From Armatimonadota bacterium (GTDB taxonomy: Bacteria; Armatimonadota; UBA5829): a stretch of DNA of 64,000 nt. A model generated the notes under the pieces. That model saw nothing but the letters and a program-made list of their open reading frames with translations. It was not told the origin of the DNA and did no database searches. Position numbers and translations under genes: made by a program. Numbering within the stretch: position 1 is the stretch's first letter; every line of letters starts with the position of its first letter. The stretch spans positions 2,445-66,444 of the forward strand of contig JAAYKE010000049.1 in NCBI GenBank assembly GCA_012522575.1, written 5' to 3'. Shown piece by piece: positions 38,679-53,665 of the stretch.

Positions 38679-38761
38679 GTGCAATCCGGACATATTCACG
38701 CGCTAAATATAACCGCAAGCCGGGATAAATTGGTCAATGAAATGATTGGAGCCTGAACAGC

Positions 38762-39277
38762 TTGGATCGAAAAAATACGATATTGTTCTATTCGACGGCA
38801 GCGGATGTGGCGGTTATAGATCAGTTGACCAAGTATCTGGCGCGGCAGAACCTCGCGTCCGGCAAGCCTGTGGAGGTGATCGCGGGTCTGCTTGACCTCC
38901 CCCTCAACTTCAACACGGGGGCTGCGTTCGGTCTGCTGCCGGATTGGGCGCCGCTGCTCATAATCATGGCCCTTGTGGCGATATTCATAATCGTAAAACT
39001 GCGCGGCGTTGGCGGCGGTTCTTTGCCTGTTTCGATTGGCCTTGGCCTGCTGCTGGGCGGTGCGATTGGCAACCTCATCGACCGCATCGCATTCCCCGCT
39101 CGCGGCGTGACCGATTTTATCGATATCCACATATTTGTTAAAGGTCAGACGCACGCCTGGCCTACTTTCAATATCGCGGATGTCGGGATAGTGGTCGGCG
39201 CGATTCTGGTTTTGTTTCACGTATATATCCTCGAAAGGATGAGAATGGATGATGGAGACACAGAGGCCGCAGATTGA
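38762..39277 (+). CDS. lspA: Lipoprotein signal peptidase (signal peptidase II)
   Basis: 'NFNTGAAFGLL', 'GNLIDR', 'FNIADVGIVVG' conserved blocks; conserved position downstream of ileS. Confidence 0.85.
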   Translation: MDRKNTILFYSTAADVAVIDQLTKYLARQNLASGKPVEVIAGLLDLPLNFNTGAAFGLLPDWAPLLIIMALVAIFIIVKLRGVGGGSLPVSIGLGLLLGGAIGNLIDRIAFPARGVTDFIDIHIFVKGQTHAWPTFNIADVGIVVGAILVLFHVYILERMRMDDGDTEAAD

Positions 39278-39752
39278 GATAGAGCCGACACCGATTGATC
39301 GAGTGGTGGATACGCTGGCGATGATAGGGCTGTTGTATATGGTGGCGATAACCGTGATCTATTATCCGCAGCTTCCGGCGACCATTCCCACGCATTTCGA
39401 TCTTGCAGGCAAAGTCGACGGCTGGGGATCAAAGTTGACCCTGTCGTTTTTGCCTGTGATAAGCGCGGTCTTTTATTTCGCTTTATCTACGATCACCCGT
39501 TTTCCGCACATATATAACTATCCCGTGCCGATAACCGCGGAGAACGTCGAGAAGCAGTATCGAATCGGAATATCGATTATGCGATGGCTGAAGATGGAGT
39601 TCGTGTGCATTTTCGCATTTCTGACTCAGCAGATAATCGCTGCGGCTCAGGTGAAACATCTTTCGATGCAGCCGTGGGTTCCGATGTTGTTTGTGGCGGC
39701 GATACTGATTACATCGGCTGTGCATATAGTGTTGGCTTATCGCGCGAAGTAG
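39249..39752 (+). CDS. DUF1648 domain membrane protein
   Basis: 'IPTHFDLAGKVDGWGSK' is the DUF1648 signature; four predicted TM helices. Confidence 0.5.
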   Translation: MMETQRPQIEIEPTPIDRVVDTLAMIGLLYMVAITVIYYPQLPATIPTHFDLAGKVDGWGSKLTLSFLPVISAVFYFALSTITRFPHIYNYPVPITAENVEKQYRIGISIMRWLKMEFVCIFAFLTQQIIAAAQVKHLSMQPWVPMLFVAAILITSAVHIVLAYRAK

Positions 39753-39761
39753 TATTGTTTC

Positions 39762-40523
39762 ATGCATAGTACCCTGTTTAAGATATTTGGATTTCCGGTG
39801 CACTCCTATGGCCTGATGATGGTCGTTGGGTTTGCGCTTGGGCTGTGGCGCGCGAGCAGAATATCGAAGAAGCGATATGGAATTGAGCCGGATCGGGTCT
39901 ATGATATGGCCCTGACGCTGCTGATCAGCGGCATAGTGGGATCGCGAATCGTATTTGTGCTCATTAACCCGGACACGGAGAGCTGGAAGGATATGCTGTC
40001 GGTGTGGCAGGGCGGACTAAGTTTCCACGGCGGGCTGATCAGCGCGATGGTTGCAGGAGCTATTTATGCGCGTATTGCGAAGCTGAATTATTGGGTTTGC
40101 GCTGATCTGTTCTCCCCTTCGCTGACGATTGGCTATGCCTGCACTCGAATCGGATGTTTTTTGAACGGCTGCTGCTATGGCGCGCCCACCAATCTGCCCT
40201 GGGGAATGAGATTCCTCGATGAAGGCTTCCTGACTCCGCCCTCTCACCCCACCCAACTCTATGCTGTCGGCGCAAATATTCTGATCCTGTGGGCGTTGAT
40301 TAGGTTGGAGAAGCTGCGCCGAAAGCCCGGTTTCGTATTTGTCGGATATGTCGGGCTTTACTCCATATACAGATTTCTGATCGAGTTTTTGCGCAGCGGA
40401 TATACCGCCAAACTGCTCGCGTTCGGGCTGACTGAGGCGCAGTGGGTAAGCCTGGCGGCCATATTAGCCTCGGCTGTTTTGATGCTCACGGTGTATCGCA
40501 ATCCCCTCAAATCTTCACAATAG
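39762..40523 (+). CDS. lgt: Prolipoprotein diacylglyceryl transferase
   Basis: 'GFPVHSYGLMMVVGFALG', 'GGLSFHGGLI', 'R.GCFLNGCCYG' Lgt signature blocks. Confidence 0.85.
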   Translation: MHSTLFKIFGFPVHSYGLMMVVGFALGLWRASRISKKRYGIEPDRVYDMALTLLISGIVGSRIVFVLINPDTESWKDMLSVWQGGLSFHGGLISAMVAGAIYARIAKLNYWVCADLFSPSLTIGYACTRIGCFLNGCCYGAPTNLPWGMRFLDEGFLTPPSHPTQLYAVGANILILWALIRLEKLRRKPGFVFVGYVGLYSIYRFLIEFLRSGYTAKLLAFGLTEAQWVSLAAILASAVLMLTVYRNPLKSSQ

Positions 40524-40723: not shown

Positions 40724-41227
40724 ATGAATGTCAGACAACGCAGACTCAACTCGGATTTCCAGGCGCTCATCGAGCTTTCCCGCGACAATCCGCTTATTGA
40801 TTTTGATATATTAAGCAACAACAAGGACAGATATGTAGTGATTTATCGATGCAGAGGTCTGCATTGGCTGCCGGGTCGTCCGCGTCCATCCGTTGCTAAT
40901 CTGCATCGTATGGAAATTTATCTTCACCTGGACTACCCGCGCCTGCCTCCGCAACTGCAGTGGCTGACCGATATTTTCCATCCCAACATCCTGCCTCCTT
41001 CGATGAACGGCGGGGTATGCATAGGCAAATGGACCCCGGCGGAATCTCTGGACAGGCTGGTGGTGCGTCTCGGGGAGATGGTGCAGTATAAAAACTATAA
41101 CACAAAGGATCCCATGAACCTGCAAGCGGCCGCTTGGGCGGAAGAGAACTCCTCGTCGCTGCCCGTAGACAACAGGCCGCTGACAAATCATTCTAACCCT
41201 TTGGACATAGGCATAGGAGCGCAATAA
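40724..41227 (+). CDS. Ubiquitin-conjugating enzyme (E2/UBC)-like protein, copy 1
   Basis: 'DIFHPNILPPSMNGGVCIGKWTPAESL' matches the UBC active site (HPN, then the catalytic Cys, then the downstream Trp/Pro); the N-terminal 'RRLNSDFQAL' matches UBC helix 1. Confidence 0.7.
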   Translation: MNVRQRRLNSDFQALIELSRDNPLIDFDILSNNKDRYVVIYRCRGLHWLPGRPRPSVANLHRMEIYLHLDYPRLPPQLQWLTDIFHPNILPPSMNGGVCIGKWTPAESLDRLVVRLGEMVQYKNYNTKDPMNLQAAAWAEENSSSLPVDNRPLTNHSNPLDIGIGAQ

Positions 41228-41228
41228 A

Positions 41229-42167
41229 ATGTCATTTCGGTGTGGAAGGTATTTGCTGTTAGTTATTTGTTTGGGTGTTTTGTTTATCAGTTGCGTGTTC
41301 GCCGACGCCAGAGATGTGGTGGATAAAGTGGGCGATGCAGTGGTAAGCATAGAATGTGATACTCCCGCCGGCGTTTCGGGAGGTTCGGGCGTATTAGTAA
41401 ACCCGGACGGCTACATTCTGACCAACGCTCACGTCATTGATAAAGCAAAAAAAGTGCGGATTAAAATGACGGATGAGAAGCAGTTGAGCGCGAAGGTGGT
41501 GGCTAAAGACAACGAAAATGACCTTGCGATCATCCGCATCAATATCCGAAACCTGCCGGTGGCGGTTATCGGCAACGCGAAGAACGCCAAATCCGGGGAC
41601 AGCGTGGTTGCGATAGGCAGTCCCAAAGGGCTGGATCATACCGTCACCAGCGGGATTGTATCCAAAAGCGACAGAGTAATAAACGGACGCCATTATATTC
41701 AAACCGACGCAGCCCTCAACGAAGGCAACAGCGGTGGCCCGTTGCTGAACGAAAATGGGGAAATTATTGGCATCAATACAATGATTCATAAGAATGCCAA
41801 TCAACTTGGGTTTGCGATTCCCATAAATACGGCTTATGAACTGCTGAACAAAAATAATGTGGCTGTGCTCACGCCGCTGGATAATGAAGAACTTGCAAAG
41901 ACCAAATTGCCAGCCAACAAGACAGAGGGAGCAGGCAGACCATCGACCAAAAAGCCGGGCTGGATTTTATATGTGATTTTGGGAGTGGTTGCGGCGGCTG
42001 TTGCAGCAACCGTTGTGATACTGATTAGAAAGCGCAAAGCGCGAAAGCGGCAGGGAGGTAATGAGGGAGCGCTGGATATCACCCTGCATCCAAAGCTGGC
42101 ACAGGCTCAGCCGGCTGGCCAGGATAACGCCGACGACGGCGATGATTTGGAAATAGAACTGAAATAG
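41229..42167 (+). CDS. Membrane-anchored trypsin-like (S1/HtrA-type, no PDZ) serine protease with an acidic C-terminal tail
   Basis: 'ILTNAHVI' (His), 'NDLAIIRI' (Asp), 'GNSGGPLLN' (Ser) triad blocks; TM helix 'WILYVILGVVAAAVAATVVILI'; ends '...DDGDDLEIELK'; the start lies 1 nt after the E2 stop. Confidence 0.7.
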   Translation: MSFRCGRYLLLVICLGVLFISCVFADARDVVDKVGDAVVSIECDTPAGVSGGSGVLVNPDGYILTNAHVIDKAKKVRIKMTDEKQLSAKVVAKDNENDLAIIRINIRNLPVAVIGNAKNAKSGDSVVAIGSPKGLDHTVTSGIVSKSDRVINGRHYIQTDAALNEGNSGGPLLNENGEIIGINTMIHKNANQLGFAIPINTAYELLNKNNVAVLTPLDNEELAKTKLPANKTEGAGRPSTKKPGWILYVILGVVAAAVAATVVILIRKRKARKRQGGNEGALDITLHPKLAQAQPAGQDNADDGDDLEIELK

Positions 42168-42192: not shown

Positions 42193-42462
42193 ATGGGAAA
42201 AGTGGATGTCACGATTATTGACGCTACGGGAAACAAGGAGCAGCAGGCCTCGCTGCCGGACGATGCGCCGGTGAGGAGAATTATCGCCAGGCTGACGGAG
42301 ATGATGCAACTGCCGGCAACCGATCCGGGCGGACAGATGTTGAGCTACAAGTTTCAGCATAAGGCGTCCGGCACGCAGCTTACCGATGATCAGACCCTTG
42401 CCGATGCAAACGTAAAAGATGGGGACGTGCTGCGGATGCTGCCGGAGATTACTGCAGGATGA
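42193..42462 (+). CDS. Ubiquitin-like beta-grasp protein (Ubl) with a C-terminal Ala-Gly
   Basis: 89 aa; ends '...LRMLPEITAG*'; the stop overlaps the E1 start (ATGA); RBS 'GAGAGGAG' upstream. Confidence 0.6.
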   Translation: MGKVDVTIIDATGNKEQQASLPDDAPVRRIIARLTEMMQLPATDPGGQMLSYKFQHKASGTQLTDDQTLADANVKDGDVLRMLPEITAG

Positions 42463-43730
42463 TCGACGATACAGATGATCTCGGCATTGAACTGATCGGC
42501 GACGACGCCGTTGCGCCGGATGCCCAACAGCCGAAACAGGCGGACGAACAAAAGTTGGTGTCAACCGAGGAGGAAGAGGATCGCTACAGCCGTTTCCGAC
42601 TGATTCCGTGGTGGGATCAGGAGTTGCTTAAACGGACGCGCGTGCTGGTAGTTGGAGCGGGTGCGCTCGGCAATGAGATTCTCAAAAATCTTGCCCTGCT
42701 GGGAGTCGGCAAGATATTTCTGATCGATTTGGATCGGATAGAGAACTCCAACTTGTCCAGGTCGGTGCTTTACAGGCTGTCGGATGAGGGATCCGGCAAA
42801 GCGGAAGTAGCTGCGCGGTCGGCGATGGAGATCAACCCTGACATTACCGTGCATCCGTTTATGGGCAATATCGTGCACGATGTGGGCCTGGGTGTGTTCA
42901 GATCAATGGATGTGGTGATCTGCGGACTGGATAATCGAGAGGCGAGGCTGTGGGTCAACCAGTGCTGCTGGCGGGTGAACAGGCCGTGGATCGACGGAGC
43001 TATAGAGGTATTGCACGGCATAGTGCGAGTGTTCGTCCCGCCTGATGGCGCGTGTTATGAATGCACAATGAACGACACCGACTATGAGATGCTGCGGCGG
43101 CGAAAGTCCTGCGCTCTGCTGACCAGAGAACAGATGCTGGAAGGCAAAGTGCCGACCACGCCAACCATATCATCGGTAATCGCGGGAATACAGTGTCAGG
43201 AGGCCGTAAAACTGGTTCACGATCGCCCTGAGCTACCGGTGCTTGAGGGAAAGGGATACTTCTTCAACGGATTGACCCATGACTCATTTGTGGTGAATTA
43301 TACCCGCAAGCAGGATTGTTTGAGCCATGAGACCTTTGAAAACATCAAGGAGATGGACTGGCGGGCGCAGGACCTGACCTTGAGGCAGGCTCTCGAACAT
43401 ATTCGAGCGGATCTCGGAGACGAAGCGGCTCTGGAGCTTAACCGCGAAATTGTATATGAGATGACCTGTGAGCAATGCGATGTCTCGGTTCCGACTTCGA
43501 TGCTGCTGGGGAAGATGACCGAAGCCGATGCCGCTTGCCCGAAATGCCGCGAAGTGATGGCTTTGGAGATGTGTCACAGCGTCTCCGGAGACGAGGCGTT
43601 TGTTGACAAGACCTTCGCCGAAATAGGGCTGCCCGCATTTGACATAGTTGCGGGCAGGTGCGGGATGGAAGAAAGGTACTATGAGTTGAGCGGTGACAGG
43701 GCAAAGATGCTCGGCGACATCGCGGATTGA
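42459..43730 (+). CDS. E1-like ubiquitin-activating enzyme (ThiF/MoeB/HesA family) with a C-terminal CxxC zinc module
   Basis: 'RVLVVGAGALGNEILKNLALLGVGKIFLIDLDRIENSNLSRS' adenylation Rossmann fold; C-terminal 'CYEC', 'CEQC', 'CPKC' pairs; N-terminal acidic 'DDTDDLGIELIGDD'. Confidence 0.8.
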   Translation: MIDDTDDLGIELIGDDAVAPDAQQPKQADEQKLVSTEEEEDRYSRFRLIPWWDQELLKRTRVLVVGAGALGNEILKNLALLGVGKIFLIDLDRIENSNLSRSVLYRLSDEGSGKAEVAARSAMEINPDITVHPFMGNIVHDVGLGVFRSMDVVICGLDNREARLWVNQCCWRVNRPWIDGAIEVLHGIVRVFVPPDGACYECTMNDTDYEMLRRRKSCALLTREQMLEGKVPTTPTISSVIAGIQCQEAVKLVHDRPELPVLEGKGYFFNGLTHDSFVVNYTRKQDCLSHETFENIKEMDWRAQDLTLRQALEHIRADLGDEAALELNREIVYEMTCEQCDVSVPTSMLLGKMTEADAACPKCREVMALEMCHSVSGDEAFVDKTFAEIGLPAFDIVAGRCGMEERYYELSGDRAKMLGDIAD

Positions 43731-44707
43731 GCAAAAAAAGAACGGGTGGGAAGGCTATGACTGCAGAGGATAGACACAATGATGCAGATATTGAGCTTAT
43801 TGTAACCGAAAATCGGCCCAGCGGCGCGATGGATTGTCCGGACATCCGGATCGACCCTGAAGTAGATAAGCAGATACAGACCTTCGCAAAAACAGACACC
43901 GGCAAAGAGTTGGGAGGAGTGCTGCTTGGGGAGCTTATCGCTGATTCCGTAATCCCGCAGGTGAGAATCAAGGCCGCTATTGAGGCCAAACATACGGAAG
44001 CCGTTCAGACAAGCGTCAAATTCACCCACGATACCTGGGACGACATCAACCGGGTCAAGGATGAAAAATATCCGGATATGCGGATAGTCGGGTGGTTCCA
44101 CACTCATCCCGGCTTTGGCATATTCCTGTCGCGGTGGGATATGTTTATCCAGGAAAACTTCTTTAATCTGCCGTGGCAGGTGGCCTATGTGGTCGATCCT
44201 GTCGGTAAAACGAGCGGGTTTTTCCGGTGGGAAAACGGCAAAGTTGCTCAGGTCGGCAAGAAAAAAGAAATTGCGCCTCCTATTGAGGTCACGCTTCCGA
44301 AAGTGGAAAAAGTCGGCAGGTCATTTAACTGGGGAACGGTATTCTCTGTTGTCTTGAACGTTGCGCTGATTGCGGCCGTGGTATATCTTGGCCTGTTCAA
44401 GCCTCCGGAGGTTCGGGTTGAGGAGAAAATCGTAACCGAAGAAGCGCCGGTTAACGTTGAGCGGCAATCGACAACTGAGATGACCGAGCAAGCGCAGACG
44501 TGGACGGAATATGTTGTGCAGAGGGGGGATTCTTTCTGGTCGATAGCCAAGAATTGTTATGGAGAGGGTGAATTATATACCGCTATCCAACTCTTCAACA
44601 ATATGCCCGATAAAAAGGTACTGCACACAGGGGAGCGCTTGCGGCTGCCGTCCAAAGAGATCGCCGTTACGATGCTTGACAAGAGGATCAGACCAGGGAT
44701 TGATTAA
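43727..44707 (+). CDS. JAB/MPN (JAMM) metalloprotease fused to a TM segment and a C-terminal LysM domain
   Basis: 'E..AV' glutamate plus 'WFHTHPGFGIFLSRWD' (HxHx7Sx2D); TM helix 'VFSVVLNVALIAAVVYLGLF'; LysM 'YVVQRGDSFWSIAKNCYG....AIQLFNNMPDKKVLHTGERLRLP'. Confidence 0.75.
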   Translation: MSKKRTGGKAMTAEDRHNDADIELIVTENRPSGAMDCPDIRIDPEVDKQIQTFAKTDTGKELGGVLLGELIADSVIPQVRIKAAIEAKHTEAVQTSVKFTHDTWDDINRVKDEKYPDMRIVGWFHTHPGFGIFLSRWDMFIQENFFNLPWQVAYVVDPVGKTSGFFRWENGKVAQVGKKKEIAPPIEVTLPKVEKVGRSFNWGTVFSVVLNVALIAAVVYLGLFKPPEVRVEEKIVTEEAPVNVERQSTTEMTEQAQTWTEYVVQRGDSFWSIAKNCYGEGELYTAIQLFNNMPDKKVLHTGERLRLPSKEIAVTMLDKRIRPGID

Positions 44708-45301
44708 ATGCGTTCGTCTGTCGGCAAAACGTGTCCATATTGCCAGTATCCCATCAAGCCGGATGAGCCGGTAATCGAGTGCAGTCATTGCGGCATGCCG
44801 CATCATAGGGCTTGCTGGGAATATAACCGCGGGTGTACGACTTATGGCTGCAGCGGAGTGCAGCGGCATGGCAGATTGCCCGTTGCAGGCAATCAGCAGG
44901 GGTCTGATCATATCGACCTTACAGACATAATGCACGAGCCGGAACAGCCGACTCCATACTATCCGCAACAACCGGGATACCAGCCCGCGGAATCGGAAGC
45001 TCCGCTTTTAGCGACATCGAACTCATTAGCGGGCAGCGGAGGAGTGATTGGAGCGATAATCGGAGGATTTATCGGTCTGAGCGGCGGGTGCGCAGGCTGC
45101 ATTCCCGGCGCAATTTTCGGTTTTATCATAGGCGCCTTGATCGGCGGGTTTATGCTCTATGGCATTATAATAACTGTGACCAGCGGGATTGGGTATATGT
45201 TCGGATCAGTCGGCGGGCAGGACGCGGCTATCGGCGGAGCGGCAATCGGGCTGATAGTCGGAGTCATAATAATCGTAATCGGTTGCTGCAAGCAGGCATG
45301 A
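44708..45301 (+). CDS. PHD/RING-like binuclear zinc-finger protein (paralog 1) with a glycine-zipper membrane C-terminus; candidate E3
   Basis: N-terminal 'CPYCQYPIKPDEPVIECSHCGMPHHRACWEYNRGCTTYGC' (C-x2-C-x12-C-x2-C-x3-HH-x2-C-x6-C-x4-C); the C-terminal half is GxxxG-rich and hydrophobic. Confidence 0.55.
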   Translation: MRSSVGKTCPYCQYPIKPDEPVIECSHCGMPHHRACWEYNRGCTTYGCSGVQRHGRLPVAGNQQGSDHIDLTDIMHEPEQPTPYYPQQPGYQPAESEAPLLATSNSLAGSGGVIGAIIGGFIGLSGGCAGCIPGAIFGFIIGALIGGFMLYGIIITVTSGIGYMFGSVGGQDAAIGGAAIGLIVGVIIIVIGCCKQA

Positions 45302-45339: not shown

Positions 45340-45939
45340 ATGGCTAATACAGTGGCCGGACCCGCAATAGCCGGCAAGACATGTCCGTTTTGTCAGACTC
45401 CGATAAAACCAAATGAACCTGTGCACATTTGTGACCAGTGCAATATCCCGCATCACCAGGATTGCTGGCGGGAAAATGGCGGCTGCACGACTTTCGGGTG
45501 CAGGGGAGCCAATGCAGCACGCCCAATCATCCCGCAACGAGCTTACGACGATCACTCTCAACCAGTCCAACAGCAGCCCTATTTTCAACCAAATCAGCAA
45601 CCCGGATACGGTAATCAATATCAACAACATTATCAATATGCGCCCGATGTGCCGCCTGAAATAATGGGCAAGCTCAACTGGGGAGCATTTCTTTTGCCTT
45701 TCTTTTGGGCGATAGCCCACAATGTGTGGATCGGACTCTTAATACTGGTTCCCTACGTTGGATGGGTTATGCATTTTGTTCTGCTGTTCAAGGGCAACGA
45801 ATGGGCGTGGAGAAATCGCAGATTCCAGAGCGTTCAACATTTCAACGAAGTGCAAAATGCCTGGGTGATAGCGGGACTCATATTGTTCTTCGGGTCGATA
45901 GTGTTCGTTTTTATATTAATGTCACTGGCGTACGCTTAG
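45340..45939 (+). CDS. PHD/RING-like zinc-finger membrane protein (paralog 2); candidate E3
   Basis: 'CPFCQTPIKPNEPVHICDQCNIPHHQDCWRENGGCTTFGC' has the same ligand spacing; a Gln/Pro/Tyr-rich linker; two or three C-terminal TM helices. Confidence 0.55.
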   Translation: MANTVAGPAIAGKTCPFCQTPIKPNEPVHICDQCNIPHHQDCWRENGGCTTFGCRGANAARPIIPQRAYDDHSQPVQQQPYFQPNQQPGYGNQYQQHYQYAPDVPPEIMGKLNWGAFLLPFFWAIAHNVWIGLLILVPYVGWVMHFVLLFKGNEWAWRNRRFQSVQHFNEVQNAWVIAGLILFFGSIVFVFILMSLAYA

Positions 45940-45962: not shown

Positions 45963-46847
45963 ATGACCGGCAAGCTCTGTCCATATTGTCAAAATCGTAT
46001 TACGTCGGGGAGCGCGGTTACTGCCTGCCCTGCCTGCAACACTCCGCATCATAGCGAGTGCTGGAACTACAATGGCGGGTGCACGACTTTTGGGTGCCGA
46101 TATATGCCCGGAGCAAGTGCGCATTCTTCAGCACAAGCATACGATGCATACGATGACCTGGATATAGAGCTTTATCCTCCGGGTGGCGGGTATCCGCCTT
46201 CGCGAAGCGGTCATGTGGAGCAGCAACACTACCGGCAGAGCCAGCCCAGGTCAAAGAATTCGTGGTTGTGGGCGATTATTTCGATAACTGCGTTTCTGGG
46301 CATGGTCGCCATTATGATAAGCACGACATTCAATAACCCGACGAATGCATCTTACATGAAACGCGCCATAAAATGCGTCAATCAAGAGCAGTATGAAACT
46401 GCAAAAACCTACTGTAATCTGGCTATTGAACAGGACCCCGAGTGTATGGAGGCATATTATCTGAAGGGCACATTGCTGCTGGAGCTTTGCAATTGGCGGC
46501 ACAACAACATTGAGGTGTGGATGAACCAGGCCAGACACGGTAACACTGAGCGGTTCGATGCGGCAGATGAGTGCTTTAGGCAATGTATCAGGTTCGCGCC
46601 AACTGATACGACTGAATATAACAAATATCTGAAGCTGGATAACTCTGAGATTGTGAGCCGGGCGTATGTCCACCTGGCGATGACGGCAACTCTGCGGATG
46701 CTGGCTAATTATGATGCCAATCGTATGAACGACGCGCTACTATGGGCCAGAATCGCGCGGCAATATCTTAACAAGGTGACATATTACCACCTTGGAACGG
46801 AGTATTACGAACTGGCAGATGCCCTGCAAAAGTTTGTGCCCGGTTAA
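45963..46847 (+). CDS. PHD/RING-like zinc-finger membrane protein (paralog 3) with a C-terminal TPR-like helical domain; candidate E3
   Basis: 'CPYCQNRITSGSAVTACPACNTPHHSECWNYNGGCTTFGC'; one TM helix 'WLWAIISITAFLGMVAIMI'; TPR-like 'YETAKTYCNLAIEQDPECMEAYYLKGTLLLE'. Confidence 0.55.
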   Translation: MTGKLCPYCQNRITSGSAVTACPACNTPHHSECWNYNGGCTTFGCRYMPGASAHSSAQAYDAYDDLDIELYPPGGGYPPSRSGHVEQQHYRQSQPRSKNSWLWAIISITAFLGMVAIMISTTFNNPTNASYMKRAIKCVNQEQYETAKTYCNLAIEQDPECMEAYYLKGTLLLELCNWRHNNIEVWMNQARHGNTERFDAADECFRQCIRFAPTDTTEYNKYLKLDNSEIVSRAYVHLAMTATLRMLANYDANRMNDALLWARIARQYLNKVTYYHLGTEYYELADALQKFVPG

Positions 46848-46897: not shown

Positions 46898-47467
46898 ATG
46901 AACCCTAGAATGATGCGTCTGAATGCCGATTACGAGAAGATCAGGACGGAATTTCTCGGCCATAGATATGTTACGGTCGAACCGATGGGTTCGCTGCCGC
47001 CTGAGAGATATAGAATCACATATCGAGTGCCGGGGCTGCGATGGGATAGCTTCGGCAACAGGCCGATTGTCGTCAACGAACATGTCGCGGAGATATATCT
47101 TCACGCTGATTACCCGCGTCAAACGCCAAAAGCTACCCTCAAAACCCCGATTTGGCACCCGAACTTTGGCACATATATCTGCATTGGAGATCACTGGGCG
47201 GCAGGAGAGACGCTGGTGGATATAATCGTGCAGATTGGGGATATGATTCAATATAAGTCCTACAATCCCAAGAGTCCGCTCAATGCAAATGCCGCGATAT
47301 GGTCGATGCAAAACCAGCATCTCTTCCCGGTAGGGACGATCGATATCCTGCAGCCGGAACCGGAGGTGGAGTTTGGCGGCGCAAGCGCAGATGTTGAGGA
47401 GGATGACCTTGGAATTGTGCTGGGGCCAAGCTCCGATAACGATGATCTGGAGATAGAATTCAAATGA
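46898..47467 (+). CDS. E2/UBC-like protein, copy 2, with an acidic C-terminal tail
   Basis: 'PIWHPNFGTYICIGDHWAAGETL' HPN...C motif; N-terminal 'MRLNADYEKI'; ends '...DNDDLEIEFK'; RBS 'GGAGACG' upstream. Confidence 0.7.
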   Translation: MNPRMMRLNADYEKIRTEFLGHRYVTVEPMGSLPPERYRITYRVPGLRWDSFGNRPIVVNEHVAEIYLHADYPRQTPKATLKTPIWHPNFGTYICIGDHWAAGETLVDIIVQIGDMIQYKSYNPKSPLNANAAIWSMQNQHLFPVGTIDILQPEPEVEFGGASADVEEDDLGIVLGPSSDNDDLEIEFK

Positions 47468-48231
47468 CACGGCCAGATGACGCCGGCAATCAAAAAATTG
47501 AAGTGACACTGGACGAGCCGGTCGATACGCCTGAGCAGGGATCAAATAGACCGCAAGGGGAATCGGAAGGCGCGATTCCACCGGGAGCCGTTGAGGTCTA
47601 TATAGACAAGGCTGTGCTTGAATCGACCTGGGAGCATGTGCTCACAAACAGGCGCACCGAGCTTGGCGGAGTGCTGATTGGGCGGCGCAGGGAAGCGGAC
47701 GGAACCTTTACGCACATCACAAACTGGCTTGACGCGAGGCACACGACCACCACCTCCGGCAGCCTGACATTCACACACGATGCCTGGGCCGATATAGCGC
47801 AACGAATGAGCGATATGGATCCGGATGACAAAATTGTCGGATGGTATCATTCTCATCCCGGCCACGGCGTTTTTATGAGCGGCCAGGATAGATTTATCCA
47901 TAATAACTTCTTTGCCAATGACTGGCAGTGTGCGCTGGTGATTGACCCAATTAAAAACGACAGGGGATTGTTTCAATTAGTCAACGGACAGATTGTGCGC
48001 ACCGGGTATTGGTGTGTGCCCGACAAGCCGGTGTATGTGACTCAACAAGATAGTAAGCCCGTTGCCGTGGAAACGCCGCCGCAACAGGATGGGTTGCACG
48101 AAGCGGCAAGCGATTTTCTGGAAGCGGGAGATCATATCGCATCGGGAATAGAGAAATTCGTAAAATATTCTGCACAGCGCATACGCAATTCTAAAGGCCC
48201 GCTTGGCCGGAACATCGACAAAAAGGCGTAA
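47464..48231 (+). CDS. JAB/MPN (JAMM) metalloprotease, copy 2 (soluble)
   Basis: 'ELGGVLIG' glutamate plus 'WYHSHPGHGVFMSGQD' (HxHx7Sx2D); the start overlaps the E2 copy-2 stop (ATGA). Confidence 0.75.
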   Translation: MTRPDDAGNQKIEVTLDEPVDTPEQGSNRPQGESEGAIPPGAVEVYIDKAVLESTWEHVLTNRRTELGGVLIGRRREADGTFTHITNWLDARHTTTTSGSLTFTHDAWADIAQRMSDMDPDDKIVGWYHSHPGHGVFMSGQDRFIHNNFFANDWQCALVIDPIKNDRGLFQLVNGQIVRTGYWCVPDKPVYVTQQDSKPVAVETPPQQDGLHEAASDFLEAGDHIASGIEKFVKYSAQRIRNSKGPLGRNIDKKA

Positions 48232-48258: not shown

Positions 48259-49344
48259 ATGAGCAACGACAAAATTGAAATCAGCTTTGACGATGAGGAC
48301 GAGCAGCCGAAGCCCCGGGAAAAGAAACTGATCATTACGAGCGATGACCTGCTCAACGTGCCCGACCCGCAGCCGCTTGCCGCACAGAAGCCTGTGGGGT
48401 TTGATGCGCCTGCGGATTCATATATGCAGTATCAGAAGAAACCATCGGCCTCAGCGGTGTCCGGTCACAGTATTATGCAGGGAGCAATCGCCGGGCTTAT
48501 TGGCGGTTTTTTGGCGTGGGCTGTCACTGAGCCTTTATTTGGGGACAATGTGGCCAGCAGCAATTTTGTCAGTATCATCGTTAAAATGGGTTTTTTCGGC
48601 GGACTGATCGGAGGGCTGATTGGCGGTTGCCTGGGAGCTGCGGATGGAGTTGTTTCAGGAGTTGCTGAAAAGGCGTTCAAGGCCGGCGCAATTGGCTTGG
48701 GGATCGGAATGGGCGGCGGTTTTCTGGGCGGAGTTTTTGGGCAGATTGTCTATGGCGCTCTGCTGCAATCGGGAGAACCCGGACTTGGCACATATATGGT
48801 GGCGCGAACAATCGGCTGGTCGGTGGTGGGTGTGTTCGTTGGGTTGGGACAGGGAGTAGGACGAGGCTCCGGCAAGCGCGTGACTAACGGTTTGCTGGGA
48901 GGTCTGGCTGGCGGTTTTATTGCAGGAATTCTGTTTGACCCAATTTCGGTTTTATTTGCTACCGGATTGTTGAGCCGACTCTTTGGAATCACGATACTCG
49001 GCGCTGCTGCCGGGCTGGCGGTCGGATTGGTGGAGGAAATGCGAAAGCAAGCCTGGTTATCTATAGTCAAAGGGCCGCTTGCGGGCAAGCAGTTTATTTT
49101 ATATGAACAAAGAACGAGAATTGGCAGTTCTCCCAAGTGTGAAATTAGTCTGGTAAAAGACCCGCAGGTGATGCCGGAACACATTGCCATAGATAATCAC
49201 GGCAGCAGTTTCAGCCTCAGCGCTCTTATGGGACAGGCGCTGGTGGACGGACGACCGGTACATCAAACCCGGCTGCAGGCGGGGAATATGATCACACTCG
49301 GTTCGACGTCGCTGCTCTTTGAGGAGAAGGCGATCGGTCAGTAG
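48259..49344 (+). CDS. Membrane protein with a glycine-zipper TM region and a C-terminal FHA-like domain
   Basis: N-terminal acidic 'KIEISFDDEDEQ'; GxxxG-rich hydrophobic core 'GAIAGLIGGFLAWAV...GGLIGGLIGGCLGAADG...GIGMGGGFLGGVFG'; C-terminal 'GKQFILYEQRTRIGSSPKCEISLVKDPQVMPEHIAID.....L.....ALVDGRPV....L..GNMITLGSTSLLFE' matches an FHA fold pattern. Confidence 0.55.
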   Translation: MSNDKIEISFDDEDEQPKPREKKLIITSDDLLNVPDPQPLAAQKPVGFDAPADSYMQYQKKPSASAVSGHSIMQGAIAGLIGGFLAWAVTEPLFGDNVASSNFVSIIVKMGFFGGLIGGLIGGCLGAADGVVSGVAEKAFKAGAIGLGIGMGGGFLGGVFGQIVYGALLQSGEPGLGTYMVARTIGWSVVGVFVGLGQGVGRGSGKRVTNGLLGGLAGGFIAGILFDPISVLFATGLLSRLFGITILGAAAGLAVGLVEEMRKQAWLSIVKGPLAGKQFILYEQRTRIGSSPKCEISLVKDPQVMPEHIAIDNHGSSFSLSALMGQALVDGRPVHQTRLQAGNMITLGSTSLLFEEKAIGQ

Positions 49345-49526: not shown

Positions 49527-50102
49527 ATGATCGCGCCTAGGCGCATTTTGGGCCTTATCTGCGGGGTGTGCGCGGTGATATTGGTCGTGGGATGCAGCGG
49601 TGGTAATTCATCCGCGCCTGCCGAGGGAAATCGGCCCCAGTCGCTGTTTAGCGCAGATTTGGCCGAACGACTGGACAGACACGATGCGCAAACCGGGGAT
49701 GTGCAGGCGAGTTTGATCTGGAATAACTACAACGACCTCGACTTGCACATTATTGATCCGAATGATGAACGGATATATTTCGCGCACAAACGGGCCAGGT
49801 CAGGAGGGGAACTCGATGTGGATATGAACGCGCGCGGTCGGGAATCTAATGAGCCGGTCGAAAACATCTATTTCCCGCAAGGCGGAGCGCCCGCCGGACG
49901 CTACAGGGTCTACGTTCATTACTATGCCAAGCACGACTCCGATAACCTCACCCCGTTCAGATGCGAAGTGCTGGTCAAAGATGAGGTGCATAAATTCTCC
50001 GGGGAGATGTCCAAAGGCGATCCGATCCGACTGATTTATGAATTCACACTGGAAGGCAAGCAGGAAAAACCAATTCCACTGCTGTTTTCACCGAGAAGAT
50101 AG
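49527..50102 (+). CDS. Lipoprotein of unknown function
   Basis: 'MIAPRRILGLICGVCAVILVVGCSGG' lipobox; conserved-looking 'LIWNNYNDLDLHIIDPNDERIYF....GGELDVDMN' beta-rich domain; RBS 'GGGAGGG' upstream. Confidence 0.5.
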   Translation: MIAPRRILGLICGVCAVILVVGCSGGNSSAPAEGNRPQSLFSADLAERLDRHDAQTGDVQASLIWNNYNDLDLHIIDPNDERIYFAHKRARSGGELDVDMNARGRESNEPVENIYFPQGGAPAGRYRVYVHYYAKHDSDNLTPFRCEVLVKDEVHKFSGEMSKGDPIRLIYEFTLEGKQEKPIPLLFSPRR

Positions 50103-50229: not shown

Positions 50230-50934
50230 TCAATAATTAAATGCCAGTGCTTTTCCAAAGCCCGCGTAAGGCACCTTCACAAAGAACGCCCCGGCAGCAT
50301 AGTAGCTGACGGCATATTGCTCTATCAAAAAAGTGACCCCGGCAGGAGTGATAACGAACTCCTTGGTCAGTTTGTCGCTGTCGGCGGTCACTGTCCCATC
50401 CTGCACCCAGGTCGCGTTTTGGTTGCTCTGAAGCTGCGCATAGACCCTCTCGCCCGCCAGCTTTTTTGCGTCCACTTCGGGTTTGAACAGATCTTGCAGG
50501 GCCAGCAGTTTCGGTTTACCGTTTATAACCCCGTAGTTCCTGCCGTGGAAGTAGGTCATGCCATGTGCTCCGCCGGTATAGGTATACTCGGTGAAGTATA
50601 GGCTGATGAGGTCGGGCCGGGCGATGGATACGGCAGGCTCAAGCACATAGGAGTAACGCAACGGAATATCTTTTCCCTCAAAGTCTTTCTTCATCTGGGC
50701 AAGGTCTTTTCGAAAAGCTTGAAGCCGTTCACCGGCGAACTTCAGCAGGTCAGCGTTTGCCGTTTTTATTACCGTGTCTGAGCCGGCAAACTGCGGATAA
50801 GTTACCTTTATCTCGGCATCTCCAGTTCTTATTGAAGCTATCTTTACGCCGAGCTTCTCCTGAGCTATAGACATCTGAAGCCCGGCAAGCGTAAGCACCA
50901 TACAAACCAAAGCTGTGCTAAATATGCGCTTCAA
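50230..50934 (-). CDS. DUF3298/DUF4163 (RsiV-like) domain secreted protein
   Basis: Signal peptide; 'TYTGGAHGMTYFHGRNY' is the DUF3298 hallmark. Confidence 0.55.
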   Translation of the reverse strand: MKRIFSTALVCMVLTLAGLQMSIAQEKLGVKIASIRTGDAEIKVTYPQFAGSDTVIKTANADLLKFAGERLQAFRKDLAQMKKDFEGKDIPLRYSYVLEPAVSIARPDLISLYFTEYTYTGGAHGMTYFHGRNYGVINGKPKLLALQDLFKPEVDAKKLAGERVYAQLQSNQNATWVQDGTVTADSDKLTKEFVITPAGVTFLIEQYAVSYYAAGAFFVKVPYAGFGKALAFNY

Positions 50935-51066
50935 GAGTGTGCCTCCTCATACATATCTTTCCAAGTAAGACCGCATGCGCGCCGTTGGATTTAGAGATAT
51001 CCGTCAAAACCCCGCCGGAACCCGACGAGGTCAATTTCGCATAGAGAACGGTTCTATTTTGATTAT

Positions 51067-51144
51067 TGGTCGGGGCGGAGAGATTTGAACTCTCGGCCTC
51101 CAGTTCCCAAAACTGGCGCGCTAACCAAGCTGCGCTACGCCCCG
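51067..51144 (-). tRNA. tRNA-Pro (anticodon TGG)
   Basis: A manually folded reverse-strand cloverleaf: acceptor CGGGGCG/CGCCCCG, D-arm GCGC-AGCTTGGTTA-GCGC, anticodon stem CCAGT/ACTGG with loop TTTGGGA, T-arm GAGAG-TTCAAAT-CTCTC, discriminator A plus CCA. Confidence 0.85.
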
Positions 51145-51225
51145 ATCGACAATATTATATCACACACCACGCCCGTATAACAGGCTTGGTGACCCTCACT
51201 TTACATCATCCCAAAAGCGCGTCGA

Positions 51226-52422
51226 TTATTGAGACAACTCCAAAACCAGCAACTCCATAATCATTCGCGGATCCTCCACGTGTGCGCCCCCATCAGCCCC
51301 TTTTAGCATAGAATCGGCCCTGGCAATCGCATCGAACCCGTTTATGAGATGATCGCGCGACATAAGCGATGCCTGCGATCTGAGACGGTTTTCCTGCCAA
51401 CTCTGCCTGCTCAGGATGTCGAGCAGATTCGGAGTAGATGGCAGAAATGACAGCAACTCCTGCGGAACCGAGCCTTTTTGAAAGTATCTGACTCCGGCCT
51501 TTGAAAGCATTTTATACTGCCATATCAATCTGAACGTGCGAGCAATGTTCGCCAGCACCTTGGGAGCCTCGGATTCCGGTCGGTCGCCGGTCTCAAATAA
51601 TTCATCCAGAAATCGCATAGCCTCTCTGGGTTTTCGAGCGCCAATCGCATCCACCAGCTTGAATACCTTCTCCTCCGGAGTCTCACAGACCACCCTGGCG
51701 ACATCGGCAGCCTTGATTGCAGAGCCGTCACCGGAATAATCGATCAGCTTTTGAGCCTCAGAAGTCAACACCGAAAAATCTGCGCCTACACGCTGAATGA
51801 ATGCAGTGAGAGTCTTTTCATCGATTTTTTTGCCCGCTGCGGCAAATATAGAGGCGGCGTGTTTGCGAGCGCTGTCGGTTCGAGCACGACCCTTTTCCCC
51901 GCCAACCTTTACTACGCTGCCCACCTTGCGAATGGCCCTGGAAATATCCCCGATAACCTCATCGCCCTTTTTAATCCTGCCCCCCGTTTTGTCCGATGCA
52001 GGAGTGACCAATATCAAACACGCGCTCGAAGGCGTATCAGGTAGCTGCCGTGCAAGTTTCTTCTGTTCGGCCTCATCCATCTTATTGGCGAACTTGACCA
52101 GCACAACTCTTTTGGTAGAAGAAAACGGAGGGATGGCAAGCCCTGCCATAATGCGATCCGAAGTTGCCGAATCGCCCTCCATCTGCTCGAAGTCGAAGTC
52201 CGCGAAATCAGGCGCGACAAGATCGCCGAGCAATTTTTCAAGCTCCTGCTGTTTGCGATAATCATCGTCCCCCGCGAACAGATATGCGCGAGGCTGGTTG
52301 GCAGATTTGTCTTTCGAACTCATAGCATACGCATTATCGCACTCCAGGCCACAATTGGCAACCGTTTCCAATAACCCAGCAATTTTACCTGTTTTGGCAG
52401 GTAATAAAGGTATTTGGGGCAT
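51226..52422 (-). CDS. holA: DNA polymerase III subunit delta
   Basis: N-terminal 'YLFAGDDDYRKQQELEKL', then 'PPFSSTKRVVLV', then 'CLILV': an LxxG(E/D)-type clamp-loader delta layout; about 400 aa. Confidence 0.55.
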   Translation of the reverse strand: MPQIPLLPAKTGKIAGLLETVANCGLECDNAYAMSSKDKSANQPRAYLFAGDDDYRKQQELEKLLGDLVAPDFADFDFEQMEGDSATSDRIMAGLAIPPFSSTKRVVLVKFANKMDEAEQKKLARQLPDTPSSACLILVTPASDKTGGRIKKGDEVIGDISRAIRKVGSVVKVGGEKGRARTDSARKHAASIFAAAGKKIDEKTLTAFIQRVGADFSVLTSEAQKLIDYSGDGSAIKAADVARVVCETPEEKVFKLVDAIGARKPREAMRFLDELFETGDRPESEAPKVLANIARTFRLIWQYKMLSKAGVRYFQKGSVPQELLSFLPSTPNLLDILSRQSWQENRLRSQASLMSRDHLINGFDAIARADSMLKGADGGAHVEDPRMIMELLVLELSQ

Positions 52423-52681
52423 AGAAGGGGAATATTATAAATGTCCGACCATTTAGTGGTTGGGAATATAGGCTGCTCCTCGCGGGTAAGGCTCGCGAAG
52501 TCAGCAATCAATGGAGGATCGAATGGTCCTTTCCCTTTACCACGAACTCGCAAAAAGCGAGCGACGGACCTGAGCCAGGCGACGCGGAAAGTTCGGGGCA
52601 ACTGCGATTTCCACTAGCCTGGCTCAATCTTGTCCGGACGATAATGCAGGGTTTATCGTTATCTGCATAGAATCCCACACT

Positions 52682-53665
52682 GTGAACGAATCTATTTTTC
52701 TCGTTGAACCCCAGGATGCCGGCAAGCGGCTCGACGTGTATCTGGCGGAGCGGATTCCGGAGATTTCTCGGTCTCATATACAAAAACTCATCGCCAGAGC
52801 TTGCGTGACGGTGAACGGATCGACGGCCAGATCAGGGTATAAGATCCAAACCGGAGAAGCTCTGCGCGTGGAAATACCTCCCCCTGAACCCGCCGATATC
52901 AGCCCGGAGCAAATACCGCTGGACGTCGCCTACGAGGACGAACATATCATCGTCATCAACAAACCCAAATCCATGACCGTGCACCCTGCGCCGGGCCACA
53001 GAAGCGGCACCCTTGTCAACGCGGTGGTTGCGTATTCCGATGACCTGTCCGGGATTGGAGGCACGGAGCGGCCGGGGATCGTTCATAGACTGGATAAAAA
53101 CACCTCCGGGCTGCTGGTTGTAGCCAAGACCGATGCGGCGCATTCATCGCTGCAGGCTCAGATTCAGAGCCGAAGCGCCGAGAGAAAATATCTTGCCCTC
53201 GTCTGGGGGTCGACTAATTTCAACGAGGCCGTTGTCGATGCTCCCATAGGACGTCACCCGACCGACCGTCAAAAGCAGGCGGTGATAAAAGATACCGAAC
53301 GCTACACCGCTCGCGAGGCTATCACTCACTTAAAGGTCCTGGAAAGGTTTGACGGATTTACTTTCCTTGAGGCAAAACTCGACACCGGACGCACGCATCA
53401 GATTCGCGTCCACTGCGTATTTATCGGTCATCCGGTAGTCGGCGATCCCACCTACGGCGGCACAAAACGCGCTATGCCATCATCCTATGGAAAGCTTGAT
53501 GCGCCCGATCTATTGCAACTTATAGAAGCTCTGCAAGGGCAGGCTCTGCATGCATATTCCCTGTCGTTTGATCATCCCGCAACCGGCAAGCGATTGAGCT
53601 TTGAAGTTCCGATGCCATCGGATACAGCGGCGTTGGTCGATTGGCTGAGGAATTGGACCCAATAA
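52682..53665 (+). CDS. rluD: RluA-family 23S rRNA pseudouridine synthase (RluD-like) with an N-terminal S4 domain
   Basis: 'GIVHRLDKNTSGLLVVAKT' catalytic Asp block; N-terminal S4-like 'RLDVYLAE...SRSHIQKLI'. Confidence 0.8.
   Translation: MNESIFLVEPQDAGKRLDVYLAERIPEISRSHIQKLIARACVTVNGSTARSGYKIQTGEALRVEIPPPEPADISPEQIPLDVAYEDEHIIVINKPKSMTVHPAPGHRSGTLVNAVVAYSDDLSGIGGTERPGIVHRLDKNTSGLLVVAKTDAAHSSLQAQIQSRSAERKYLALVWGSTNFNEAVVDAPIGRHPTDRQKQAVIKDTERYTAREAITHLKVLERFDGFTFLEAKLDTGRTHQIRVHCVFIGHPVVGDPTYGGTKRAMPSSYGKLDAPDLLQLIEALQGQALHAYSLSFDHPATGKRLSFEVPMPSDTAALVDWLRNWTQ

Follow-up and report, generated by a model that had tools for sequence, protein, structure and literature searches.

Predicted membrane-associated ubiquitin-like conjugation operon with two E2 and two JAB genes in an Armatimonadota bacterium

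Introduction

The stretch of Armatimonadota DNA analyzed here (contig JAAYKE010000049.1 of assembly GCA_012522575.1, positions 2,445 to 66,444 of the forward strand; 64,000 nucleotides, hereafter the window, whose own numbering is used throughout) carries a block of 11 to 12 genes, at 40724 to ~50102, that is predicted to encode a conjugation system for a ubiquitin-like protein (Ubl). The block holds two ubiquitin-conjugating (E2) enzyme genes and two JAB peptidase genes; the upstream copies are designated E2a and JABa (E2-1 and JAB-1, or copy 1) and the downstream copies E2b and JABb (E2-2 and JAB-2, or copy 2). Gene content, gene order, and comparison with related loci suggest, with a probability of about 0.7, that the block is one operon for a membrane-associated, eukaryote-like Ubl conjugation system of the Prok-RING_1 type. 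The duplication that gave rise to its two E2s is evidently ancient, the split between them being apparently older than the operon's dispersal among phyla.

Complete bacterial cascades of E1, E2, RING-type E3, and Ubl have reportedly been predicted since 2011, and operons of this kind are said to be known from comparative genomics by Burroughs, Iyer, and Aravind in that year, reportedly also the source of the Pfam family Prok-RING_1 (PF14446). According to the Pfam description of this family, bacterial RING proteins carry transmembrane helices, as do those of the present cassette. The literature searched yielded work on an archaeal system and on the Bil, Bub, and cyclic oligonucleotide-based antiphage signaling (CBASS) systems, in addition to passing mentions of operons with a "rare RING-type E3."

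Results

Gene content and organization of the cassette

Open reading frame (ORF) and Pfam analyses place all genes of the block on the forward strand (Table 1); neighboring genes either overlap by 4 nt or are separated by no more than 50 nt. The sole larger gap within the block, of 182 nt, precedes the lipoprotein gene, a homolog of which was found downstream in the closest relatives only (L004, L007, and L009). The protease gene begins 1 nt past the E2a stop codon, and the ATGA at 47464-47467, read directly from the sequence, combines the E2b stop with the JABb start; a Shine-Dalgarno-like GGAGA lies ~10 nt upstream of 46898. A first-pass annotation, made from the sequence alone, had recognized a second E2 gene at 46898 and a second JAB gene at 47464, translationally coupled through this ATGA, and the ORFs, Pfam matches, and sequence all confirm it. 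Predicted internal promoters or terminators were judged not to be in excess within the cassette (13 compared to 10.5, and 13 compared to 9.1, in shuffled sequence), and provide no evidence for a separate E2b/JABb transcription unit. Proteins identical to E2b and JABb are present in a public Armatimonadetes metagenome-assembled genome (NLN75494.1 and NLN75495.1), as is a further cassette protein (NLN75486.1).

The three zinc-finger genes that the same annotation had placed between the two copies indeed lie there, and their domains are Prok-RING_1 (38-42 bits), above the PF14446 cutoff of 29.1 bits; the corresponding cutoffs for the E2 and JAB matches were 27 bits (UQ_con) and 22.5 bits (JAB). 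As in other Prok-RING_1 operons, a Gly-terminated Ubl, an E1 of the ThiF type, UBC-type E2s, RING E3s, and Rpn11-like JABs are encoded in a same-strand neighborhood, an arrangement found in more than 80 loci. In the E1 alignment, residues D6, D7, L8, and C218, as well as the CxxC pairs, are invariant, and the N-terminus of the enzyme reads DDLGIEL.

Table 1. Predicted genes and acidic motif copies of the conjugation cassette (window coordinates)
Feature	Coordinates	Strand	Supporting match or location
E2a, UBC-type E2	40724..41227	+	UQ_con 41.7 bits
Trypsin-like S1 serine protease, N-terminal signal/transmembrane segment and second transmembrane segment	41229..42167	+	Trypsin_2 3e-34
Ubiquitin-like beta-grasp protein (Ubl), 89 aa	42193..42462	+	YukD 2e-14; weak Rad60-SLD and ubiquitin matches
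Single E1, ThiF-type adenylating enzyme, C-terminal CxxC pairs	42459..43730	+	ThiF 2e-54
JABa, Rpn11-like JAMM peptidase with transmembrane segment and extracytoplasmic LysM	43727..44707	+	JAB 42.7 bits; LysM 1e-6
RING E3 1, N-terminal Prok-RING_1, then glycine-zipper transmembrane segments	44708..45301	+	PF14446 40.5 bits
RING E3 2, Prok-RING_1, then two transmembrane segments	45340..45939	+	PF14446 38.1 bits
RING E3 3, Prok-RING_1, DLDIEL linker, one transmembrane segment, extracytoplasmic TPR-like region	45963..46847	+	PF14446 42.3 bits; TPR_1 1e-6
E2b, UBC-type E2, 189 aa	46898..47467	+	UQ_con 35.9 bits
JABb, soluble Rpn11-like JAMM peptidase, 255 aa	47464..48231	+	JAB 45.4 bits
Polytopic membrane protein, C-terminal FHA-like (YscD-type) domain	48259..49344	+	Yop-YscD_cpl 3.6e-12; FHA 4.6e-6
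Small lipoprotein, possibly last cassette gene	49527..50102	+	DUF2135 weak, just below cutoff
Exact DLxIE[LF]	42144-42161	+	Protease C-terminal tail
Exact DLxIE[LF]	42477-42494	+	E1 N-terminus
Exact DLxIE[LF]	46155-46172	+	RING E3 3 linker
Exact DLxIE[LF] (DLEIEF)	47444-47461	+	E2b C-terminus
Looser motif copy	near 43760-43790		JABa N-terminus
Looser motif copy	near 47494-47511		JABb N-terminus
Looser motif copy	near 48271-48288		FHA-like protein N-terminus

Catalytic residues and predicted structures

Pairwise alignment gave 38% identity over 150 aa for the two E2s (E=1e-32) and 35% over 195 aa for the two JABs (E=1e-32), the former value in keeping with the initial description of the E2s as paralogous but diverged. 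The catalytic set comprises H86-P87-N88 and C99 in E2a, and H87-P88-N89 and C95, with W100 retained, in E2b. The HPN triad and catalytic Cys are invariant in all 114 E2a clusters (formed at 90% identity; E2a is not rare in metagenomes, and its HPN-x10-C spacing is constant) and in all 126 E2b clusters. Both E2s match eukaryotic UBC enzymes, the closest PDB sequence to E2a being the eukaryotic E2 6zm3 (4e-9). The AlphaFold2 (AF2) model of E2b (mean predicted local distance difference test score, pLDDT, 86.9) is confident over a UBC core that spans residues 1-150, and its top Foldseek matches are UBE2K, Ubc13, and UbcH5 (E ~5e-8); E2b thus has the fold, HPN, Cys, and Trp of a canonical UBC E2 (PF00179). 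Beyond the core is a disordered, acidic tail, absent from E2a, that ends in DD[LFI][DE]I[ET][FLI] (DLEIEFK in the window).

The alpha-1 motif R-x-x-R-L-x-[AS]-D-[YFW] is common to E2a and E2b, which is consistent with one E1 serving both, and the single E1 of the cassette probably charges the two enzymes alike. Other positions differ systematically between the two clades. The distance from the HPN Asn to the catalytic Cys is 11 residues in E2a and six or seven in E2b, and the E3-binding loop past the conserved Trp reads [ST]-P-[AS] in E2a and [GA]-A-G in E2b, the former resembling the SPA motif of UbcH5. At the CES/D position (named for a Ser or Asp that E2s conserve), which aligns with UBE2D2 D117 and UBE2A S120, E2a has Asp in 108/114 clusters (Asp129 in the window), reading Asp-Pro/Ala, and E2b has Ser in 122/126, with Pro at +1 in 118/126 (Ser126-Pro127 in the window). 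In eukaryotic E2s, Asp at this site is associated with constitutive activity (UBE2D), and Ser-Pro with activation by phosphorylation under the control of cyclin-dependent kinases (Rad6/UBE2A) (PMC4604453); the resemblance of the bacterial enzymes to these classes is positional only, and the operon contains no kinase. Collectively, the differences suggest a division of labor between E2a and E2b. Specialization of an E2 for a subset of the RING ligases, as raised in the first-pass annotation, is possible, and the difference in the E3-binding loop between the two clades lends it a measure of support.

The JAMM residues are E66, H129, H131, S139, and D142 in JABb, all of them invariant in the JABb alignment, and E61, H125, H127, S135, and D138 in JABa; across the family, HxHx7SxxD is intact in 127/129 JAB ORFs. 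JABb has the E...HxHx7SxxD signature on an MPN fold that characterizes JAMM/MPN+ isopeptidases (PF01398). Its AF2 model (pLDDT 84) consists of a confident MPN core and a long C-terminal helix, with the Caldiarchaeum Ub:Rpn11 homolog 6fnn as best fold match (TM-score 0.80) and the C. subterraneum Rpn11 homolog 6fjv as best PDB sequence (1.6e-8). The best PDB match of JABa is yeast Rpn11 (3e-9), and both JABs match Rpn11, CSN5, and AMSH. JABb is without a hydrophobic segment (maximum Kyte-Doolittle value over 19 residues, KD19, 0.54), and JABa has one at residues ~200-218; hydropathy and the Pfam LysM match therefore agree with the earlier view of JABb as soluble and of JABa as carrying a transmembrane segment and LysM. 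Full-length orthologs of JABb form only about ten clusters, suggesting that it is fast-evolving, and identity to the orthologs in the related contig L004 is 60% for JABb and 73% for JABa.

Values of dN/dS (nonsynonymous to synonymous substitution rates), computed against the closest of the relatives compared, were 0.07-0.19 in all four genes wherever an estimate of dS was obtainable, and are indicative only because dS was saturated (>1.4 or undefined). With catalytic residues present and dN far below dS, the assessment that both copies are intact, as opposed to decaying, stands.

The Ubl of the window ends exactly at Gly (...EITAG) and contains five lysines. Since there is no propeptide to remove, the JABs of this genome would act as deconjugases and not as Ubl-processing enzymes. 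Among Ubl homologs, 28/84 likewise end at Gly, and the remainder carry 1-18 residues beyond the last Gly and thus need processing, so the role of the JABs may differ by lineage: deconjugation only in some, maturation as well in others.

Distribution of the family and age of the duplication

To survey the family without bias toward any number of E2s, a one-genome-per-species collection was scanned with E1 as the anchor. E1 relatives were found at at least 556 sites, including cultured Clostridia and many animal-gut lineages, with Clostridium weizhouense YB-6, Massiliimalia massiliensis, Tissierella creatinini, and Anoxynatronum buryatiense (type B, described below) among the cultured carriers; the best 80 were classified with hidden Markov models built from the window and three relatives, and 42 of these loci had enough flanking DNA to count as complete. 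Two or more JABs are present in 31/42 complete loci. Both E2a and E2b occur in 4/42, and E2b alone in 36/42; one further locus with E2b alone, L068, was counted under FHA on account of its fused E2-FHA protein. Homologous cassettes thus do not always carry both pairs, a point raised for checking in the first-pass annotation: most complete loci have two or more JABs, and few have two E2s. The comparison with Bil-like operons, said to have one of each enzyme, drew on the wrong family; in the actual family of the cassette, two JABs are the majority state.

Four layouts were distinguished. Type A, that of the window, has two E2s and two JABs in the order E2a-protease-Ubl-E1-(M48)-JAB/LysM-RING(1-5)-E2b-JABb-FHA and occurs on Syntrophomonadaceae and Armatimonadota contigs. 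The contigs of three E2b homologs share this order, with JABb moved beside JABa in L006. Type B, found in most gut and rumen Clostridia, reads RING-Ubl-E1-E2-protease-JAB-RING-JAB/LysM, and type C reads Protease-Ubl-E1-JAB-E2-(JAB)-FHA-RING, each with one E2. A fourth, distant layout, E2b-like-(FHA)-Ubl-E1-(unknown)-E2a-like-JAB-RING, was seen in L087 and L088, where the JAB gene directly follows E2a and not E2b (4-nt overlap in L087, 2-nt gap in L088). These two contigs are 3.65 and 1.55 Mb long, and several neighboring genes there encode proteins of 290-520 aa without a Pfam match. E2a and E2b together thus recur in at least two unrelated gene orders, and E2b is found in every architecture seen, the L077 locus excepted. 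One type B cassette lies on a contig labeled as Escherichia coli isolate cleanbin (L035; CAVGWF010000065.1), which is probably mis-binned rather than an E. coli gene cluster.

The first-pass annotation had described the E2 and JAB genes as a pair duplicated inside the cassette, and this does not agree with the phylogeny. More than 200 E2b homologs were found in Armatimonadota, Syntrophomonadaceae, Gelria, and Abditibacteriota, many of them 50-79% identical; E2b is thus far nearer to its orthologs in other phyla than to E2a (38%), which argues against a local duplication. A neighbor-joining tree built from 93 E2 domains, for which human UBE2D2 and UBE2N served as the outgroup, sets the 13 E2a sequences and the 78 E2b sequences apart as two clades, with bootstrap values of 86/100 and 68/100, respectively. 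The E2a clade is found in type A and the L087/L088 layout, and the E2b clade spans all layouts; within type A, the two have matching branching orders, as co-inheritance would give. On this comparative evidence, the E2 duplication is ancient and its split appears to have come before the operon spread among phyla; E2b is evidently the standard E2 of the family, and E2a an old sister paralog retained in some lineages only.

The JABs do not follow the E2s. The JAB with a transmembrane segment and LysM is widespread, being the distal JAB of type B in both loci scanned with Pfam, and the non-LysM JAB is restricted; the latter is soluble in the window and membrane-anchored in Clostridia, where both JABs have membrane anchors. 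The JAB tree was used solely for this division, which Pfam confirmed. With E2b and the LysM JAB widespread and E2a and the soluble JAB restricted, the "pairs" that had been treated as units are not units of evolution. Type A operons invariably couple E2a to the gene for the trypsin-like protease. At L006:4490-4999, a 169-aa protein stands in place of this protease; it weakly matches the C-terminal part of the Trypsin model only, carries a looser version of the docking motif described below at its C-terminus, and may be a truncated protease remnant.

Association of E2b with an FHA-like membrane protein

The sole E2 of type B loci is 540-650 aa long (L027:11184-13109, L029:11149-12891, and ~30 other loci), and Pfam scans of these two examples found UQ_con followed by a C-terminal FHA/Yop-YscD_cpl domain. 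By domain content, this long E2 is evidently a fusion of window genes 9 and 11, namely E2b and the FHA-like protein. E2b is long (>450 aa) in 32/42 complete loci and a separate FHA gene is present in 8/42, for a total of 40/42; in L088, the FHA gene lies directly 3′ of the E2b-like gene. Such a Rosetta-stone fusion indicates a functional link between E2b and the FHA-like polytopic membrane protein, whose gene in the window lies two places downstream, and argues against the cytosolic circuit to which the copy 2 pair had been assigned.

The FHA-like domain of the window fits the YscD cytoplasmic-domain model better than FHA, and neither the window protein nor its homologs conserve the Arg, Ser, and Asn that canonically bind phosphothreonine. 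A role of this domain as phosphothreonine reader for the Ser-type E2b was considered and set aside as a weak link on that account. In some relatives, a small VWA-domain protein is encoded beside the FHA gene (L010:17888-18589 and L089:13813-14517), and in one relative a DUF2085 membrane protein lies between the JAB and RING genes. The distal part of the cassette is modular.

A recurrent acidic motif at protein termini

The acidic, beta-strand-like motif DLxIE[LF] occurs in four exact copies in the cassette proteins, compared to 0.007 expected from composition, and in none of the 25,206 aa of the other long ORFs of the window. The copy in the short cytoplasmic tail of the protease reads DLEIELK at its very end. 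A looser form is 16-fold enriched in the cassette proteins of 87 sources (the window and 86 loci), where it is located at protein termini, including the C-termini of the protease (59/65) and M48 protein (4/4), as well as E2b (64/79). DLxIE[LF] looks like a docking peptide of the SUMO-interacting motif (SIM) or LC3-interacting region (LIR) type, with the Ubl or the FHA-like domain as candidate receptors.

Genomic setting

The cassette is flanked by housekeeping genes upstream (ileS, lspA, a DUF1648 gene, and lgt; 35925-40523) and by genes for a PdaC/DUF3298 protein, holA, and rluD downstream (50230-53665). The order ileS-lspA-DUF1648-lgt is retained upstream of the cassette in L004. In Syntrophomonadaceae the cassette is located elsewhere, beside flagellar genes or insertion sequence elements.

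Comparison with characterized systems

The five component types of the cassette are those of the archaeon Caldiarchaeum subterraneum, whose Ub, E1, E2, srfp (RING), and Rpn11 have been reconstituted in vitro, with conjugation demonstrated for the archaeal system (PMC5654768, PMC6043591); the cassette E2s share its canonical UBC fold. The Caldiarchaeum operon has Ub, E1, E2, and srfp genes in single copy and a lone Rpn11 gene nearby (PMC5654768, PMC6043591), whereas the cassette has two E2s and two JABs and also encodes three membrane RINGs, a protease of the periplasm, and a membrane protein with an FHA-like domain. The archaeal system is not known to have membrane anchors. In addition, Caldiarchaeum Ub is a precursor cut by Rpn11 (PMC5654768), in contrast to the Ubl of the window with its terminal Gly.

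Bil operons share with the cassette a Ubl, E1, E2, and JAB in one operon, with JAB as the peptidase; they have no E3, a CEHH-type E2, and an E1 of IAD-AAD-CYS layout (PMC10557695). PADLOC models matched none of the cassette E2s (BilB included), RINGs, Ubl, or FHA protein; the BilD match was partial (2e-9, adenylation core only) and that of BilC was 0.006, both weak and generic. With no BilB match, three RING E3 genes, and canonical UBC E2s, membership in the Bil family was rejected. Type II CBASS (Cap2/Cap3), in which an E1-E2 fusion adjoins a CD-NTase and an effector, was likewise dismissed: the E1 and E2s are separate genes here, the PADLOC E1-E2 matches cover the adenylation core only, and no CD-NTase is present among the cassette Pfam calls. 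Bub operons (6E/DUF6527) are built from a BubE serine protease and Ubl-E2 or E2-E1 fusions, with a catalytic Ser in the E2 (PMC11601596). The cassette was excluded from this class as well, for its E2s are stand-alone proteins with a catalytic Cys and Pfam scans found no DUF6527.

Discussion

The cassette at 40724 to ~50102 is best read as a single Prok-RING_1-type operon whose products would conjugate a Ubl to proteins through an E1-E2-E3 cascade. In the proposed mechanism, one E1 would activate one Ubl that already ends in Gly, and one or the other of the two UBC-type E2 paralogs, both with intact catalytic residues, would then receive it. The three RING E3s, all anchored in the membrane and each with its own extracytoplasmic domain, would recruit E2~Ubl to targets and so guide transfer on the membrane's inner face. 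E2b would work in complex with the FHA-like protein, and E2a would provide a second, differently wired activity, serving another class of E3s or targets, or acting constitutively (unregulated) alongside a regulated E2b. The two Rpn11-like JAMM isopeptidases would remove or edit conjugates, JABb being made stoichiometrically with E2b.

The model put forward in the first-pass annotation, in which duplication of an E2-JAB pair produced a membrane-proximal circuit (pair 1) and a cytosolic circuit (pair 2), draws on the LysM-bearing membrane anchor of JABa, the solubility of JABb, and the translational coupling of E2b and JABb; the JAB gene that follows E2a in L087 and L088 further indicates that E2-JAB gene pairing is recurrent. 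Several observations make it decidedly unlikely, however. E2a is separated from JABa by the protease, Ubl, and E1 genes, the components of each supposed pair differ in distribution, the E2 that occurs in Clostridia as a fusion with a polytopic membrane protein is E2b and not E2a, both clostridial JABs are moreover membrane-anchored, and the E2 split is older than the spread of the operon. Another arrangement would have the E2s act in sequence, one priming and the other extending chains, in the manner of UBE2C/UBE2S with the anaphase-promoting complex/cyclosome (APC/C) or of yeast Ubc4/Ubc1. The alpha-1 motif compatible with a single E1, the differing CES/D residue and E3-binding loop, the conserved acidic tail of E2b, and the five lysines of the Ubl would suit such a scheme; yet most operons of the family use E2b alone, so that chains, if any, do not need E2a, and there is no evidence of Ubl chains and no UEV-like (ubiquitin E2 variant) or UBA partner. 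Sequential action is accordingly rated unlikely, and so is the Cdc34-like docking role that the E2b tail would have within it. That either extra copy is a decaying or non-catalytic duplicate, a UEV-like E2 or MPN-minus JAB serving at most as a scaffold, is hardly credible: the rapid divergence of JABb and its few full-length orthologs might be taken that way, but none of the 240 E2 clusters departs from HPN and Cys, the five JABb residues are invariant and the JAMM motif is nearly so across the family, dN is far below dS for all four genes, and the AF2 models of E2b and JABb are confident. This idea was rejected on the strength of the conserved catalytic residues and the low dN.

A role in anti-phage defense of the Bil, CBASS, or Bub type, with the extra E2 and JAB as an elaboration for targeting phage proteins, also has some attractions. 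The sporadic spread of the cassette across phyla suggests horizontal transfer, some copies adjoin transposase, GmrSD, and PD-(D/E)XK genes, the trypsin-like protease resembles protease modules of defense proteins, and Bil and type II CBASS are themselves built from E1, E2, and JAB (PMC10557695, PMC11601596). It is nonetheless unlikely, given the failure of PADLOC models to match the E2s, Ubl, RINGs, or FHA protein, the stable housekeeping setting (ileS-lspA-lgt and holA-rluD) in the window and its Armatimonadota relatives, and E2s of canonical UBC rather than Bil CEHH type; the RING E3s, LysM, and extracytoplasmic sensor domains point instead to an envelope-linked role. A bolder extension of the operon model posits a eukaryote-like division among bacterial E2s, in which an Asp-type, constitutive E2a and a Ser-Pro-type, switchable E2b, tethered to the FHA-like polytopic membrane protein through fusion or through its DLxIE[LF] tail, would share one E1 and serve different RINGs and deconjugases. 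The switch could be, for example, phosphorylation of the CES/D serine or envelope signals received through the RING and LysM ectodomains. This extension is tentative and, on balance, doubtful.

Several points weigh against the interpretation of the cassette as a two-E2 Prok-RING_1 operon with an ancient E2 split, or against parts of it. The 80 classified loci are those nearest to the E1 of the window, and the proportions among them are therefore not those of an unbiased census. E2b is not strictly universal, one complete locus in 42 (L077) having E2a without it. The monophyly of E2b has only 68% bootstrap support, and the neighbor-joining trees are based on ~170 columns, so that long-branch effects could misplace E2a. 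The JAB tree, with its long branches and poor resolution, is no firm basis for a count of JAB duplications. Phosphoregulation of E2b, in turn, is disfavored by an operon that holds no kinase and an FHA domain that lacks phosphothreonine-binding residues. Finally, the literature searched contained no biochemistry or genetics on bacterial RING-type operons.

Of such systems, only the archaeal one and those without an E3, namely Bil, CBASS, and Bub, are characterized in that literature. The RING-type bacterial system considered here is common (at least 556 sites) and is built around membrane proteins. Its multiplicity of enzymes is conserved as well, with two Rpn11-like JABs as the usual state and, in a large subfamily, two E2 clades that differ systematically at the active site and in the E3-binding loop. 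The "duplication" that was flagged in the window is thus a hallmark of the family and not an oddity of this locus, and the differences between E2a and E2b bear on the origin of E2 specialization. If a eukaryote-like division of labor between the two E2s is true, multi-E2 ubiquitin networks would predate, or would have arisen independently of, eukaryotes, and this operon family would serve as a tractable model, in prokaryotes, of how E2s pair with E3s and how E2 enzymes are regulated.

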